The notes beneath the pieces are model-generated. The model saw only the letters and a list, made by a program, of their open reading frames with translations, had not been told where the DNA came from and did not search any database. DNA of 64,000 nt. Origin: Cladosporium halotolerans. Taxonomy: Eukaryota. The translations under genes were made by a program, and so were the position numbers. Positions within the stretch are counted from its first letter, which is position 1. The number at the start of each line of letters is the position of its first letter. Of the stretch, positions 3 to 49,235 are shown one piece after another. The stretch is from contig NW_027191454.1 of NCBI RefSeq assembly GCF_011745625.1, positions 62,001 to 126,000 of the forward strand, read 5' to 3'.

Positions 3-98
3 GAAAGCCTCAATCGCTGGTTGGGCGCGTTCAAGAGCGTGCTGAGCCGGCGAAGAGCGGCGAGCAAGGATTACGGGACCGTCGCTGGCGCATCATGA
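3..98 (+). CDS. 3' end of a gene truncated by the window edge; probable C-terminal helix of a PH domain
   Basis: Frame 3 reads ESLNRWLGAFKSVLSRRRAASKDYGTVAGAS-stop (TGA 96-98); the E-x-L-x-x-W-L-x-A-F pattern resembles the Trp-containing terminal helix of PH domains; a T-rich 3'UTR-like tract follows. Confidence 0.4.
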   Translation, partial: ESLNRWLGAFKSVLSRRRAASKDYGTVAGAS

Positions 99-42292: not shown

Positions 42293-43387
42293 ATGTTGCT
42301 CCTCGATTACCAGAACGTTCTCATTGAGTCCCTCCTCAAGGACCGCTTTGCGCCAGAGTAGGCCTCCAAAAATCGCCAGGCAGCTTCCTGTATACCGGCT
42401 GACCAAATCTCCCTCTCAGAGCCACCCCTACTGCCATTGACCAGATCGTCTCTGACTTCGACAACGTCACCTTCCACATCAGCACCCCCGAGTCAAAGAC
42501 ACGCATCCTCATCTCTACCAGCATAAAATGCTACCGCGAGCTCGTGCAGTACGGCGCCGAAGACGTCCTGCAGCGCGAGTATGGCCCCTATATCGTCGCA
42601 CCCGAGCAGGGCTATGACTTCAGCGTGCAGGTTGATCTGGAGAACCTGCCGGAGAGCCAGGAAGAGAAGGACGAGCTGGTGCGGAAGATCAGCTTGCTCA
42701 AGCGCAACGCCATGGCAGCGCCCTTCGAGCAGGCCTTCGACGAGTACGCCGCGCTGCACGAGGAGGCGAGCAAGTACACCTCGGAGTCGGCGCCACAGGG
42801 TGTGCGCGAGGGCGGCGGCGTGCGCGCCATCCACTACCGCGACGAGGAAGCCATCTACATCAAGGCCTCGCACGACCGCGTGACCGTCATCTTCAGCACG
42901 GTCTTCCGCGAGGAAACGGACCGCGTGTACGGCAAGGTGTTTCTGCAGGAGTTCGTCGACGCCCGGCGGAGAGCGATCCAGAACGCCCCGCAGGTGCTCT
43001 TCCGCCACGACCCGCCGCTCGAGCTCGAGGGTCAGCCCAACCTGAAGGCCGGCAAAGGCGACGTCGGATACATCACCTTCGGTATGTCTCCTTCAGGGCT
43101 CTGAATCCCACCCATCTCATGAAACCCTCGCTAACACCTCCCCTCTCCCAGTGCTCTTCCCCCGCCACCTGACCCCGGCGCGCCGCGAGGAAGTCATCTC
43201 GCACATCCAGACCTTCCGCGACTACTTCCACTACCACATCAAAGCCAGCAAAGCCTACATCCACAGCCGCATGCGCCGACGCACCGCCGACTTCCTGCAG
43301 GTGCTGCGCCGCGCGCGGCCCGAGGCCGAGGAGGGCACCAAGGAGAGGAAGACGGCGAGCGGCAGGACGTTCAAGGTCGGTGGTTAG
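42293..43387 (+). CDS. ARC35: Arp2/3 complex 34-kDa subunit (ARPC2/Arc35); exons 42293-42357, 42420-43081, 43152-43387
   Basis: MLLLDYQN start, [60 protein letters not shown]. Confidence 0.95.
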
Positions 43388-43709: not shown

Positions 43710-44291
43710 ATGGATGACGACGATAATAGACTCCTCCCTTTAATCAAGGCTCTAATCGGGATTCCCGGCCCGGCATCATTCTCAAAGAGGGTCGCCGCCC
43801 TCGTACGTCGCCTCACTGAGAACAGATTCGCCATAGGGCAAGAGGACTAGGATGCCATACACAGCCGCAAGTGCATCCAGCCAGACTACCAGGACGAGCT
43901 CTGGTTGTTTCCGTCTCTGACGTTCGAGCTCAGCCCGGGCTGCGACTACTTCCCACAAGCATACGTTTTCACCCTCCTCGCGAGGGTCGATCCTCCTCAC
44001 CTCCCAAACTACGAGCTGCGCTTCCTGACAATAATCTACCCACCCGCTCTGGAGCTGAAACTCGATACTTACGATTAATGCCGACAGTCTAACGCCGAGG
44101 ACTGGTCAAAGGCAGACGTTGTTAACGACATCAACATGATCCACGGTAACCGGGCGATTCCCTACGAGGATTTCACCTCACGCGCGAAGAAGCTCTACAC
44201 GAGCAGGAACCTTCGCGCATTCGAAAGTTTGTAGACTTTGGAAGACTATGACGCGTTCAGATACGGTCAAAACATGAGGCTCTCCGCGTAA
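43710..44291 (+). pseudogene. Degenerate ORF of unknown family (193 codons) with three in-frame stops; RIP-like decay
   Basis: ATG 43710 opens a coding-like frame (MDDDDNRLLPLIKALIG...WLFPSLTFELSPGCDYFPQAY...) broken only by TAG 43848, TAA 44076 and TAG 44232, each one transition away from CAG/TGG/CAA. Confidence 0.55.
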
Positions 44292-44952
44292 AAAATCGGT
44301 TTTGATCGTCTAGAAGATAAGGGAGCACGTCAGAAGGCTTTTTTTCCTCGGAGATCAGCCGTACCCAACGATGATCAATGGTGCTGGCTGAAGTGGCCCA
44401 GCTGTGATAGACGCTCTCGTCTAAGGGTAGGGCGGTAGGCTCCTCCTGGGCTGCTGTGAACTGTAAACTGGGGGTGGTAAGGTTACGAGCCATGGTGACC
44501 CAGCGACCTCTGAGAGCGCCAAGGCCGCATGGGAGCATGTCGACTGAGGCTGCGGTTAGGTCGAGCTGGCGGCCCTCCGGGGCTTCAGACCTGTATTCCA
44601 AAGGAATAAGGTCGGCATAGGCCTGGCGGCCCTGTTGCACCGCGGCGTTGTTGTTCCCAAATCTTATAGGAGATGGTAGCACTTCAAGCTCGATTTGAAT
44701 CACGGAGAGGCTCGCAGCTTCCCCTCGTGCCTGGCTCTCTCTGTGGCGAACATCACATCCCCGAATCCTATAGGAGATGGTAGCACTTCAAAATCGAACT
44801 AGATTACGGAGAGGCGGTCGCGGCGTTGTTGTTGTCGCACTTTAGATATAGGGTTTGGAAGACTACGACGCGTCCTAGTATACGTTAGGCTCTCCGGATA
44901 AAAATTTGGGGTTGATAGTCTATGACAGAAGGTAGTACGTCCAAAGTCATTT
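44237..44952. repeat. Nested degenerate direct repeats: about 105-bp copies at 44237-44345 and 44854-44952; about 52-bp copies at 44660-44711 and 44764-44815
   Basis: Shared TTTGGAAGACTAYGACGCGT...AGGCTCTCCG..TAAAAA..TTGAT.GTCTA and AATCYTATAGGAGATGGTAGCACTTCAA...ACGGAGAGGC blocks. Confidence 0.8.
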
Positions 44953-45068
44953 TGTCGGGGGGATAGGGATATTCAGAGAAACACAGAAACGTTGTAATGC
45001 ACTATAGAAGAACTAGAAAATCATAGCATGGTCGTGAAGACACTTGCTTCACCTCGAACAAGAGCCGC

Positions 45069-48000
45069 TTACAAAGGCTTGCCGCCAATGAAGTCACTCC
45101 ACCTCCTGACCTCGTTGGGGATGCCGTCAGGCTTAGGCAGCTTCTCGCTCATACACTGAGCGGAGAGGACGGCAGTCTTGGGCTCCATGAAGAGCGGCAC
45201 ACCGAAGTCGACGGCGTTGCGGCGCATAACGTAGTCCTCGTCGACCATGCTGCTGGCGCGACGCTTGGCCAGGTTGAAAGCGCCACGGATGTCGTACTTC
45301 TCGAAGACCTCACGCAGGGCGCGCTTGTCCTGCTTGGGGAACTCGATGACCTCGACGTTGACGGAGCTGTCCTTGCTGGACTGCTCGAGGTGCTCCTTGA
45401 TCTCGCTGTTGGCGGCGTAGAGCTTGTAGCCGAGAGGGTTCAGGTAGTCGACAATCTTGGCAAGGTCGCCAGTAGCGGTGTCACCGCCGAAGAGAAGACC
45501 CTCACCAGGCTGGGGAAGACGGAAGTTCATGGTGCTCTGCATGCCAGCCCAGTAGGCCTCGACGAGGTCCTTGCCGAAGCAAGCCATTTCACCGGTAGAA
45601 GACATCTCGACACCGAGGTAGGGGTCGGCACCAGCGAGACGAGTCCAGGCGAACTGAGGGACCTTGACGGCGAGATAGTCACGGTCGACCTTCATCAGGT
45701 CAACCGGCTCAGGGACGTTGGTATCGGTGATGGCGCGGGTTGCGACGTCGATGAAGTTGGTGCCCAGAACCTTGGAGGAGAAGGGGAAAGAGCGAGAAGC
45801 ACGGAGGTTGCATTCGATGACCTTGAGAAGGCTCTCACCGCCCTCAGGGTTGTCGGCGTTGATGATCTGCATGTTGAAGGGACCGGTGATGTTCCAGGCC
45901 TTAGCGACCTTCTCAGCAATCTCCTTGACACGGTTGACGGTAGCGGCGGGCAGGTTGGCGGGCGGCAGCACAAGGGAGGCATCGCCGGAGTGAACACCAG
46001 CGTTCTCAATGTGCTCACTGACGGCGTGGACAAGCAGCTTGCCGTGAGAAGCAACAGCGTCAACGTCGATTTCACGAGCACCCTCAATGTATTGAGTGAT
46101 AACCACAGGGTGGTCAGGCGAGACGTTGGAGGCGGCCAAAAGCTTGTCCTTGAGCTCCGCCTCAGACCAGATAACGGTCATGGCGGCACCGGACAGGACA
46201 TAGGACGGGCGAACAAGGACGGGGTAGCCAACGCTCTCAGCAAACTTCTTAGCATCCTCGTAAGAAGTAAGCTCCTTCCAGGCGGGCTGGTCAACACCGA
46301 TAGAGTCCAGAATCGAAGAGAACTTGTGCCTGTCCTCAGCCTTGTCGATATCTTGAGGGTCAGTACCGAGAACCTTCGCCTTGCCAGTCTCCTGGAGCTT
46401 AAGAGCGATGTTCTGAGGCAGCTGGCCGCCGACAGAAACGACAACACCAGAGCTGGTCTCCAGCTCGTAGATGTCCATGACACGCTCGTAGCTGAGCTCT
46501 TCGAAGTAGAGGCGATCAGGGAAGTCATGGTCAGTTGAGGTGGTCTCTGGGTTGTAGCTAATTTGGCTGTTAGCATGGTTCTGGATGTATAGAGGTGGTA
46601 GAAATGGATGAGGTGCGAAAGGGGGGTTCTCGGCGGGCCGGGGGCGGTTTCTGAGCTCAAAGCCGACGATACCGCCACAAAACGCGATTTTTTCGAGCGG
46701 GATTGACCAGCCACAAGGGCAGGACATCTCACTGACCGATCGACGTGTTCTGTGACGGGTACCGAAGGTATGAGCTCAGGAAGCGAGAGCCTTCAGACTT
46801 CCCAGCGGCGGCGCGGCGTCGTCTCAGTGACGCACATGCACGCAATCGAACGACGACCGATGGCAGCACGTCCAATTGCAGCACTATATGTGTAAAGAGA
46901 TCAATAATCGCGCGCAGACATCGCAGTGGCCGAAAGGTGGTCTCTCGAACGCATGCCGCTGGTAGTACGTCTGGCTCGGGCATAACGTGGGTGAAGTCTG
47001 AGCCGGGCTGCGCCGAAGAATCCCCGTGCGCAGAACACACGCATTCGCGCGGCTGCTGATGGTAGGACGTCGAGATGCAAAACAACAGAAATAGACTTAC
47101 TTCTGTAATGGATTATTAGCAGATGTTCAAATGAAGATGCAAAAAAGTGAGCGACGGAAGAACTTACAATGACAACGGTCTTCTTGCCAAGCTCCTTCAA
47201 GCTGAGCGTAGCGTTGACAGCGCACCAATCGAACTCGACAGAAGAGCCAATGCGGTAGACACCAGATCCAAGAACGATGATACCGTGATCGTTGAACTCA
47301 ATATCGTGGCTGGAAGCGTTATAGGTCGTGTACAGGTAGTTGGTGTCGGCGGGGAACTCGGCGGCGAGGGTGTCGATCTTCTTGACCCAAGGGCGGATGC
47401 CAAAGTTCTTGCGGCGGGCGCGGACCTCATCTTCGGTGCTGTTGACGGCGTTGGCGATCTGCCTGTCGGAGAAACCGAGCTTCTTGGACTTGAGCATGAG
47501 CTCCTTCTTGACGCCGTAGAGCGAGCCGATGTTCTGGAGTTCGTGGGTGCAGTCGACGATGTTTTGGATCTTGTAGAGGAACCACTTGTCGATCTTGCTC
47601 AAGTCGTGGACCTTGTCGACGGAGTAACCTTCGTGAAGCATGGCCTGGCCAACAGCGAGCCAGCGGCGGTCGGTGGGGTTCCTGAGCACGTCGTCGATGT
47701 CGTCAAAGTGGTCTCCCTGGAGACCGGCGAACTTGGGGTCAACCATGCGAATAGCCTTCTGGAAAGATTCCTCGAAAGTACGACCGATAGCCATAACCTC
47801 ACCGATGGACTTCATAGCGGAACCGATGTGGCGGTCAACGTTCTGGAACTTGCTCAGATCCCAACGCGGCATCTTGGTGACGATGTAATCAAGAGAGGGT
47901 TCGAAGTTGGCGGTAGTCGTGCGGGTGACAGCGTTGGGAAGCTCAGGAAGAGTGTGTCCCAGACCGATCTTTGCAGCGGTATAAGCCAGAGGGTAGCCGG

Positions 48001-49183
48001 TAGCCTTGGAAGCGAGAGCGGAAGAACGAGAGAGACGAGCGTTGACCTCAATGACACGGTAGTCAAGACCATCCGGAGCCAGAGCGTATTGAACGTTGCA
48101 TTCTCCGACAACACCAAGGTGACGAATAATCTTGATAGCGGCAGTCCGGAGCATGTGGTATTCCTCATCGCTGAAGGTCTGAGAAGGCGAAACGACGATA
48201 CTGTCACCAGTGTGAACGCCGAGAGGGTCGAAGTTTTCCATGTTGCAGACAGTGATACAGTTATCAGCGGCGTCGCGGACGACCTCATATTCGGCCTCCT
48301 TCCAGCCCTTGAGAGACTTTTCGACGAGAATTTGCGGGGACAGGGTCAGAGAACGGGCAGACAGGTTGCGAAGCTCCTCGGGGTTCTCAGCAAAACCACT
48401 GCCGAGACCACCGAGAGCGTAAGCAGCGCGGACGATAATCGGGTAACCAACGGAGTCGGCGGCGGCGAGCGCCTCGTCGACTGTGTTGACAGCGATACTC
48501 TCGGCGATCGGAATGTCGATCTCCTTCAGAGCCTGGGCGAACAAGTCACGGTCCTCACTGACCTCGAGAGTCCTGATGCTCGTACCAAGAACCTTGACGC
48601 CGTAGCGATCGAAGATGCCCATCTTGTTCATTTGCACACCCAAGTTGAGGGCAGTCTGGCCACCGAAGGAGAGGAAAATGCCATCGGGGCGCTCCTTCTC
48701 GATCACGTAGGTGACGTATTCGGGGGTGACAGGGAGGTAGTAGACTTCGTCGGCGAGAACGTGTGCGGTTTGAATGGTTGCGATGTTGGGGTTGATGAGG
48801 ACAGACTTGACGCCGGCCTCCTTGAGGGCCTTCAGCGCCTGGGAGCCGGAGTAATCGAACTCGCCGGCCTGTCCAATAGAGAGACCACCAGAGCCAATGA
48901 CGAGGACCTTCTTGACATCAACGAGGTCCTGCGCACCAGAAATGGCACCACTCTCGAGGTATGCTTTCGCATTGGGAGCGGTCTCTGTCTGGCTGGCGCA
49001 GCTCCTGGCCGACCTGGTAAAGGCCCTAATGTTCTTGGGAGCAGCCTTGACCTGCTTCTGCTGCTTAACGCATCGTGGGGCCTGAGAGACGAAGGTACGG
49101 CGGGCAATGCGAGGAGCAGCTTGGCGGGCTTGGTGGAACAACTCCTGCTGCAGCTGGCGAACCAGCTTGCCGCTAAGAGCCAT
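45069..49183 (-). CDS. CPA2: Arginine-specific carbamoyl-phosphate synthetase large subunit (CPA2/arg-3), mitochondrial; exons 49183-47168, 47102-47101 (2-nt micro-exon), 46557-45069; 1168 aa
   Basis: [87 protein letters not shown]; mitochondrial presequence; no GATase/ATCase domains, so not Ura2; the micro-exon restores KTVVINYNPET. Confidence 0.95.
46558..47100 (-). other. Unusually long (543 nt) structured spliceosomal intron in CPA2 with four GAYGTNCTRCC repeats
   Basis: GTAAGT donor at 47100, GCTAAC branch site and TAG acceptor at 46558; long complementary segments and four motif copies (see findings). Confidence 0.85.
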
Positions 49184-49235
49184 GGTTGTTTGTGTTTTTC
49201 AGGTAATTCGGGTGGGTGCAGCGGCAGTGGTCTAG

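Follow-up and report, generated by a model that had tools for sequence, protein, structure and literature searches.

A long intron of the CPA2 gene of Cladosporium halotolerans contains four spaced 12-nucleotide (nt) sequences that differ from one another only at every third base, so that each of them can be read as Asp-Val-Leu-Pro (DVLP). Why should intron DNA vary in the manner of a coding sequence? The gene lies in a stretch of 64,000 nt (contig NW_027191454.1, positions 62,001 to 126,000), which is called the window here and whose own numbering is used throughout. A preliminary description of the window offered two answers: (a) a selected peptide repeat which is translated when the intron is retained or alternatively spliced, and (b) an RNA motif, which could be structured, a decoy of the branch site or a protein-binding site. 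Our results mostly deflated this original idea, and neither a hidden CPA2 peptide nor a structured RNA emerged. In the reading that we consider best, the copies would be the relic of a lineage-specific repeat open reading frame (ORF), part of which was copied into an old intron. The probability that we give to this reading is only about 0.35. The case is also a caution, in that synonymous-looking variation in a short repeat can survive in non-coding DNA without present translation.

The four 12-mers were found on the minus strand where they had been reported, at 47071-47060 (copy 1), 46971-46960 (copy 2), 46872-46861 (copy 3) and 46728-46717 (copy 4). The pattern GAYGTNCTRCC matches at 47071-47061, 46971-46961, 46872-46862 and 46728-46718, and the reported spacings of 100, 99 and 144 nt were also correct. 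A fifth match to this pattern, which the preliminary description did not list, is located at 44941-44931 on the same strand. Five matches compare with 0.58 expected, and five were reached in 0 of 100 dinucleotide shuffles; this shuffle test is lenient because the pattern was defined after the fact. The peptide pattern [DE][VM]LP gave 13 matches in the window, nine of them at this locus, against 3.56 expected and a maximum of 7 in 100 shuffles.

Choosing the copies by their peptide makes the argument circular, and a DNA scan was therefore used. The consensus of copies 1-3 was run over both strands of the window with at most 2 mismatches and with position 6 left free. Eight sites were found on the minus strand of 44200-47200 (47071, 46971, 46872, 44941, 44789, 44685, 44541 and 44331) and 11 in the remaining ~125 kb of both strands. 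When the three defining copies were left out, the density was 1.67 per kb on the minus strand of 44200-47200 versus 0.088 per kb in the rest of the window. Taken together, the motif is a sharp 13-mer, GAnGTnCTnCCnT, with nine copies in 2.75 kb, all in one orientation. The motif had been described as lying inside the intron. This holds for four copies, and five more are placed 130-740 nt behind the CPA2 stop codon on the same strand. The five are GACGTACTACCT (44930..44941), detected by the pattern and by the DNA scan, two copies of GAAGTGCTACCA (44789-44778 and 44685-44674), and GACATGCTCCCA (44530..44541) and GACGTGCTCCCT (44320..44331), both detected by the DNA scan; all are on the minus strand.

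The intronic copies are embedded in longer repeats. Repeat detection, column alignment and pairwise alignment all recovered the units u1 (47001..47100), u2 (46902..47000) and u3 (46803..46901) on the minus strand, which contain copies 1, 2 and 3, respectively. The three units form a decayed triplication of ~100 nt, in which 34 of 100 ungapped columns are invariant at offsets 100 and 99. Their pairwise local alignments have z values of 4.7-6.1, which 0 of 300 shuffles reached. They are followed by a degenerate unit, u4 (46700..46802, minus strand), which resembles only u2 (z 3.9, 0/300 shuffles). Accordingly, the four reported copies are not equivalent: copies 1-3 are positional homologues, and copy 4 stands out of register in the decayed u4. 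The in-register motif of u4 (46777-46766) has decayed to GAGCTCATACCT, and copy 4 is found ~49 nt further on, where u2 has GATGTCTGCGCG. This offset relative to u2 suggests an older period of ~50 nt. Head-to-tail homologous units are thus present, as in tandem (minisatellite-like) repeats. A repeat search picked up a 27-nt sequence three times (74% identity) and a 42-nt sequence twice (71%). Tandem Repeats Finder (TRF) reported no tandem repeat for the intron array, because the units are too diverged.

The best non-self matches of the intron-unit profile in the window were located just behind CPA2 on the same strand. Three flank units were delimited there on the minus strand, Z (44813..44925), A (44707..44812) and B (44600..44706). 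Unit u3 aligned with A with a score of 44 against 24.3 ± 4.3 for shuffled sequences (0/300 shuffles), and the run u2-u3-u4 of the intron was collinear with Z-A-B of the flank (score 65 against 46.0 ± 7.4, 0/300 shuffles). The copies at 44789 and 44685 belong to A and B, and the in-register motif of Z has decayed. A and B aligned with each other with a z value of 13.3 and, judged by this alignment, are young duplicates. No further repeat unit was found in the 64-kb window or in the 80 related loci introduced below. A tandem segmental duplication that included the last exon was also considered and was rejected, as no CPA2-like remnant exists downstream.

The codon-like variation was replicated in the five copies that the preliminary description had not used. 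Six of their seven mismatches fall at positions 3, 9 or 12 (binomial p ~0.002 by our own arithmetic), and the mismatches of the 11 chance matches elsewhere split 4/11/7 by codon position. The information content within the motif is 1.63/1.76/0.43 bits by codon position, and the changes at other than third positions are conservative (D/E, V/M). The similarity of the flanking peptides that had been claimed was not recovered: position 13 (T) is still informative, and beyond positions 1-13 the information content drops to about zero on either side. Of the nine copies, six have T as the second base of the codon just ahead of the motif, and six have A in the same place one codon earlier. Between A and B, 12 of 60 aligned positions differ, distributed 6/0/6 by codon position in the motif frame. 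Three of these changes are synonymous, the replacements, which include F/I, F/L, D/E and D/N, are mostly conservative, and A has a stop where B has Gln. The 6 of 7 third-position mismatches, together with 0 of 12 second-position differences between A and B, suggested that a reading frame probably shaped the repeats. Such periodicity needs a process that reads triplets, and the candidates are a former reading frame and a zinc-finger-type site.

To place the copies in the gene, the CPA2 model was rebuilt. CPA2 is on the minus strand, with its ATG at 49183-49181 and its stop codon at 45071-45069. The upstream coding exon (47168..49183) ends with ...GTC ATT and lies in an open frame of 46901..49198. 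Its N-terminus matches P0002, the ORF call of a relative, and other CPA2 proteins, and its end was set by the spliced reading ...KKTVVINYNPET and by the RNA joint. The single long CPA2 intron of the preliminary description is in fact a 65-nt intron 1 (47103..47167, GTAAGT ... CTAAT ... CAG), a 2-nt exon AA (47101..47102) and a 543-nt intron 2 (46558..47100, GTAAGT ... CTAAC ... TTAG), all on the minus strand. The four copies are indeed intronic, and all of them are in intron 2 with the repeat array. The exon AA provides the first two bases of the Asn codon AAC, and ...VVI-N-YNPET is restored only by this combination of a 65-nt intron, the AA exon and a 543-nt intron. P0002 has the same intron 1. 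The last coding exon (45069..46557, minus strand) contains no motif copy.

The transcript evidence consists of assembled contigs, not raw reads, from two RNA runs, one DNA run and one presumed RNA run. RNA contigs of X15, X16 and X5, from three studies, joined 46559 to 47168, with both introns removed. These contigs lack 608 of the 610 bases and show one mismatch, in a flanking piece, and three ambiguous letters. If AA is kept as a 2-nt exon, one mismatch at the RNA junction is expected, and this was the pattern seen. In X5, another contig ran over both unspliced introns (46528-47197). Its word depth was 62.8, whereas the spliced junction had 227.7 and the exons 288-391. An unspliced form therefore exists in X5 and, the contig depths being rough, it may represent sizeable retention or abundant pre-mRNA. 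Only these two transcript forms were seen, with both introns removed or fully unspliced (X5). Since both introns are spliced out, the motif copies are not in the mature CPA2 mRNA. Behind the gene, three RNA runs had no depth over 44887-44973 and a low-depth X5 contig entered at 44834; such contigs cannot show the ends or the absence of transcripts.

Relatives for comparison were available as close strains and relatives, at no more than about 2% divergence, and then from about 10%. Comparison of the 610 nt of introns in X3 and X5 with the window showed 11 substitutions and an insertion of 3 nt, all of them outside the four 12-mers. About one change would be expected there by chance, so this strain polymorphism is uninformative. 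For the more distant comparison, 80 metagenome loci with CPA2 (L001-L080) were used, of which 76 were scorable. At this place 37 of them are intronless and 39 have an intervening sequence (13 of at most 100 nt, 13 of 101-300 nt and 13 of more than 300 nt). An alignment of orthologous introns had been proposed as a check in the preliminary description, and the pattern was found in 0 of the 39 intervening sequences. The nearest loci (85-91% DNA identity) are L001, which has no intron, L002, whose intron is 9 nt downstream, and L008, which has a 195-nt intron between AAC and TAC; a motif copy is absent from all three. In 356.7 kb of related loci, the motif had 28 hits on one strand and 28 on the other, which is 0.079 per kb each and equals background. 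Gapped matching to 23 same-site introns gave one at p≤0.05 (Fisher p 0.15). Judged from these comparisons, the repeat array is lineage-specific.

Several likenesses to other lineages did not withstand closer inspection. Similarities seen by eye (L008 GTCCTACC at the same offset of 32, and further ones in L022, L025, L053 and L062) were not significant, and the local alignments with L008 were matched by 68, 169 and 213 of 500 shuffles. Motif discovery in 24 introns under the one-occurrence-per-sequence (OOPS) model returned a weak CTGGA-like motif only. An excess of sites with at most 3 mismatches at +15..60 (14/24 against 8.46) was pyrimidine-rich and was gone at 2 mismatches or fewer (1 against 1.34).

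The intron that holds the array has relatives of its own. Intron 2 starts between AA and C of the Asn codon, one base before the common position between AAC and TAC, and its 3' end, AGAACCATG-CTAAC, is shared with same-site introns. L010 and L076 have exactly the same 9-mer ahead of the branch site as intron 2 (AGAACCATG+CTAAC). Among 21 same-site introns, 4 agree with it at 8 or more of the 12 bases that precede the branch site; for the 978 control sites the share is 2.0%, in a control that does not correct for general branch-site context. On these similarities, intron 2 is old, with a 3' end orthologous to an old intron at the CPA2 site. A short read-through in P0005, tried as proof of an array-free ancestral intron, had a score of 31, which 47 of 300 shuffles equalled, and is suggestive only. 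Other repeats were observed in the same-site intron of other loci: its 5' part in L025 (L025:2186-2274) holds 3.2 copies of an unrelated 28-nt tandem unit with 98% matches, and short repeats were seen by eye in L022, L056 and L059. Repeat expansion seems to be common in this intron.

We ranked the explanations in the order of coding descent, a binding site, neutral chance, an RNA element and present translation. In the first of these, the 12-mers are the best-preserved core of a repeat family specific to this lineage. Its units measure ~100 nt, perhaps ~50 nt at the outset, and it is present twice at the locus in the same orientation, in intron 2 and behind the stop codon. While the repeats diverged, the motif frame would still have been in use, and they would have formed a short recurring segment (polar, hydrophobic, D/E, V/M, L, P, S/A/C) of an orphan ORF. 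The codon-like pattern would be an inherited imprint of that time, and the frame would later have been broken by stops and by indels of 1-2 nt. A piece of the array with several units would have been copied between the 3' flank and the old CPA2 intron, in a direction and by a mechanism that we can only infer. One possible route is filler DNA in double-strand-break repair, which is plausible because the same site carries GIY-YIG nuclease introns in other fungi (see below). The copies would probably have no present function. A former frame would account for the periodicity, for the conservative changes at other than third positions, for the depletion of second-position differences between A and B, and for the frames that are open over 127 codons in the intron (47112-46732) and 176 codons in the flank (44257..44787, minus strand). 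The latter frame contains three copies in frame (44685, 44541 and 44331) and is an orphan, not a conserved gene.

A number of observations weigh against this descent. The two open frames show no codon bias: GC at codon positions 1/2/3 is.60/.51/.59 and.61/.49/.57, compared with about.60/.40/.72 in genes, and the codon log-odds of the 127- and 176-codon frames are -0.65 and -0.18, compared with +0.04 to +0.88 in clear genes. Pfam gave nothing above threshold for the open frames. Word search gave the flank frame a single protein relative, the near-identical ORF P0001, whose frame departs after ...WATSA, and an exhaustive phmmer search of 1.84 billion representative proteins found no homologue beyond P0001. 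BLASTP of the 127-codon against the 176-codon frame gave an E-value of 0.06, with nothing in common beyond the motif. The residues flanking the motif are not conserved, and u1-u3 have no codon periodicity outside the 12-mer (variable columns 18/14/17 of 24/23/24). The changes between A and B are 7 non-synonymous to 3 synonymous, which is near the neutral ratio. Moreover, core and flanks decay unequally. The motif keeps 10 of 12 bases in u1-u3 and the rest has ~30% pairwise identity, which would agree better with ongoing constraint than with an old imprint, though this clustering is modest.

Ongoing constraint is what the second explanation supposes. The 13-mer may be a site for a DNA-binding protein that reads triplets, for example an array of about four C2H2 fingers reading nGG nAG nAC nTC on the plus strand. 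The arrays would then be a selected platform flanking the last exon of CPA2, with a role in regulation, chromatin or recombination. Judged on sequence features, we regard this as a tentative possibility. The motif has sharp 13-nt edges, and its degeneracy has the 3-bp period over ~12 bp of a zinc-finger site, with ~1.7 bits at two of three bases and ~0.4 at the third. The copies are either intact or fully decayed (as in u4 and Z) and, being in non-coding DNA, they would need no common frame. The CENP-B box is a parallel case of a satellite with a conserved protein-binding core. As in minisatellites with such a core, the short 12-13-mer outlasts the tandem unit here and has a 3-bp periodic degeneracy. 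Periodicity of 3 bp in a 12-13-mer has been taken as a finger signature before, in PMC3218859, where the human 13-mer CCNCCNTNNCCNC, read by PRDM9, is cited as well. Unlike the PRDM9-type motif, the CPA2 family is local (two arrays at one gene) and has no enrichment in the DNA searched, where its density is at background (0.088 per kb elsewhere in the window, 0.079 per kb per strand in 357 kb of related loci), and a former reading frame could have left its pattern just as well. The single orientation of the copies is explained by descent through duplication. A binding site would leave two things unexplained, namely the scarcity of second-position differences between A and B beyond the motif and the class-conservative changes, and no cognate protein is known. 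Of the RNA proposals in the preliminary description, the plain protein-binding site is the part that survives, with DNA as a likelier target than RNA.

It is also conceivable, but we think unlikely, that the array is a neutral, decaying minisatellite-like repeat, and that its core and periodicity reflect chance plus the selection of the case. The case was picked from a very large scan, the array is below TRF detection, and single pairwise matches (21/30) merely equal the shuffle maximum. The clustering of the core in u1-u3 is modest, with 635 of 20000 column permutations doing as well. The array has no conservation beyond close strains, and the repeat of L025 shows that unrelated tandem repeats occur in the same intron elsewhere. 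Neutral decay does not readily explain that the periodicity replicates on the five non-defining copies and again in A and B, nor that nine copies stand within 2.75 kb when 3.56 peptide matches are expected per window and 7 is the maximum in the shuffles.

The third rival takes the copies as an RNA cis-element in the pre-mRNA, which would either bind a factor for splicing or retention or act as a branch-like U2 decoy, and would modulate the removal of the long intron. In its favour, the copies are without exception on the transcribed strand, CTRCC is similar to the branch consensus, TACTAC occurs in copies 2 and 5, and X5 has the unspliced contig (62.8 against 227.7 spliced). Intron 2 as a whole also folds better than its shuffles, with a minimum free energy of -197.1 against -170.0 ± 6.3 kcal/mol (z -4.32, 0 of 100 shuffles as good). 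The outermost helices of the predicted fold join the 5' end to the region before the branch site. At the motifs themselves the idea of a structured RNA failed. Rfam had no match there and gave two chance-level matches elsewhere (E 4 and 6), RNAalifold predicted 0 pairs for six copies with 30-nt flanks, and the stability of single repeat units is ordinary (z -0.87 to +0.89). The decoy fared no better, since all nine copies have C at the place of the branch A, two of them read CTCCC, and five are outside any intron. The motif is missing from orthologous introns (0/39 exact; 1/23 at p≤0.05 with gaps), and the 3-nt periodicity would be left unexplained. We consider an RNA element quite improbable.

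The long, well-folding intron also invites comparison with the introner-like elements of Dothideomycetes, which in the accessible parts of PMC3609843 and PMC4457414 are longer than regular introns and have stable predicted structures. Intron 2 shares both features (543 nt against 65 nt for its neighbour) and belongs to a Dothideomycete-like genome. It differs in that no second copy was found in the 64-kb window or the 80 loci, and in that its 3' end marks it as old and orthologous, not a recent insertion.

The CPA2 site is a hotspot of intron turnover within a conserved housekeeping gene. Among the 76 scorable loci, at least 8 intron positions occur within ~30 nt around ...I-N-Y-N-P-E-T, and in 27 loci an intron starts directly after the Asn codon. 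In L034/L040 and L016, a 3-nt exon (TAC or TAT) separates a short intron from a long one that follows it. In L073 the intron is at the window's position between AA and C, and its first 12 bases are identical. Four loci (L022:785-2500, L027:93-1483, L042:273-2500 and L059:662-2500) have GT...AG introns of 1.4-2.2 kb between AAC and TAC, which encode one protein family on the gene strand, with a GIY-YIG domain and two C2H2 fingers (zf-C2H2_jaz, E 6e-8 to 1e-10). The frame of L042 is intact over 458 codons, and those of L022, L027 and L059 are interrupted by a stop or frame changes. A database search at E≤1e-5 placed 116 clusters in this family, and several NCBI records of 368-399 amino acids are named after CPA2.

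A first fold of the intron ORF from 4 sequences was too poor to use (predicted local distance difference test, pLDDT, 50.6). With 50 homologues, the model of the N-terminal domain reached a pLDDT of 94 and a predicted template modelling score of 0.87. It matched the I-TevI catalytic domain with Z 9.6 and a root-mean-square deviation of 2.3 Å over 91 of 94 residues, followed by T4 EndoII (Z 6.2) and UvrC-N (Z 6.0), with unrelated rows at 2.5 or below. Foldseek alone found no significant match for this model (E 0.069; none at E≤0.001). On this modelled domain, the four introns are candidate homing-type spliceosomal introns in fungi. Introns that encode an I-TevI-like domain with zinc fingers occur at this site in several fungal lineages. 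Spliceosomal homing introns ('shintrons') are described for mirusviruses in the accessible part of PMC12768974, and in a limited literature search spliceosomal introns of the GIY-YIG-bearing homing type were found in print only for mirusviruses. Like shintrons, the CPA2-site introns of L022, L027, L042 and L059 encode an I-TevI-like nuclease, here with two C2H2 fingers. The intron of the window, in contrast, has no ORF or detectable relic of one and is one base off the common position, and homing is shown nowhere.

No relic of the GIY-YIG/zinc-finger ORF was detected in the intron and flank by tblastn with the four intron ORFs, the N-terminal profile or the 50-sequence profile (best E 2.9, elsewhere in the window). 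DVLP itself had been considered as such a relic, on the likeness between ...L[LF][DEN]VL[QN][SA]...P.IRFF in L027 and LEVLPSPIRFG in the window. This was rejected: the best tblastn match (E 0.23) is elsewhere, the 4-sequence profile has no intron or flank piece in its top 25 of 2016, and the 50-sequence profile gives intron and flank pieces E > 100. The boldest version of the binding-site explanation would make the arrays platforms for a zinc-finger protein supplied in trans, namely the GIY-YIG and C2H2 intron-ORF protein of the same genome. We think this very unlikely. If it were true, the CPA2 intron would be a non-autonomous member of a mobile spliceosomal-intron family, the 3'-flank array would be the scar of an off-target event, and the triplet periodicity would be a finger-reading signature under selection. 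In five introns of the related loci (L020, L025, which is a near-duplicate of L027, L050, L055 and L059), the frame requires intron ends of CG, GG or TG instead of AG, and a branch-like CTAAC begins exactly 15 nt upstream of the end so inferred. The 3' splice site may be chosen by distance in these introns.

Present translation, which was hypothesis (a), is the weakest explanation, although the frames had been given correctly. Copy 1 can be read in frame with the upstream CPA2 exon. Copies 2-4 have a frame in common, that of the 127-codon open stretch, which includes copies 2-3 and is closed by a stop directly before copy 4. This recalls exitrons or functional intron retention, in that the exon frame continues into copy 1 and unspliced RNA has been observed. 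The difference is that the retained frame ends after 88 codons, is unconserved even in a close relative and has no coding signature. P0002 (97% identical) reads through intron 1 like the window and then continues in another frame of intron 2, which points to a 1-nt indel just before copy 1. It keeps copies 1 and 2 at the DNA level, as far as its frame shows. Despite their synonymous-type variation, it is hardly credible that the copies now yield a selected DVLP peptide repeat through intron retention or a small flank transcript: both introns are skipped in the contigs of three studies, the read-through contains copy 1 only, the copies are spread over at least three frames with stops between them (directly before those at 46728 and 44789) so that no single open frame runs through them, P0002 and P0001 change frame, and codon bias and homologues are missing.

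Two further points concern the gene and its neighbourhood. A transcript-supported exon of 2 nt is an extreme of what the spliceosome can handle, and most gene callers would miss it; together with the intron turnover at this site, it is of more consequence than the motif. Stwintrons and micro-exons, as presented in the accessible parts of PMC8469720, PMC11121469 and PMC8831610, likewise involve two successive splicing events at nearly one place; unlike stwintrons, the CPA2 introns leave each other's splice signals uninterrupted and have the 2-nt exon between them. An origin of intron 1 as a duplicate of the ends of intron 2 was rejected, since only TTTTGCATCT is common to them (7/500 shuffles for the 5' end, 153/500 for the 3' end). 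The next recognisable gene downstream is ARPC2 (p34-Arc, E 6e-74) at 42403-43104 on the plus strand, convergent with CPA2, and the gap of ~1.6 kb between the two genes contains the flank array and the orphan 176-codon frame.

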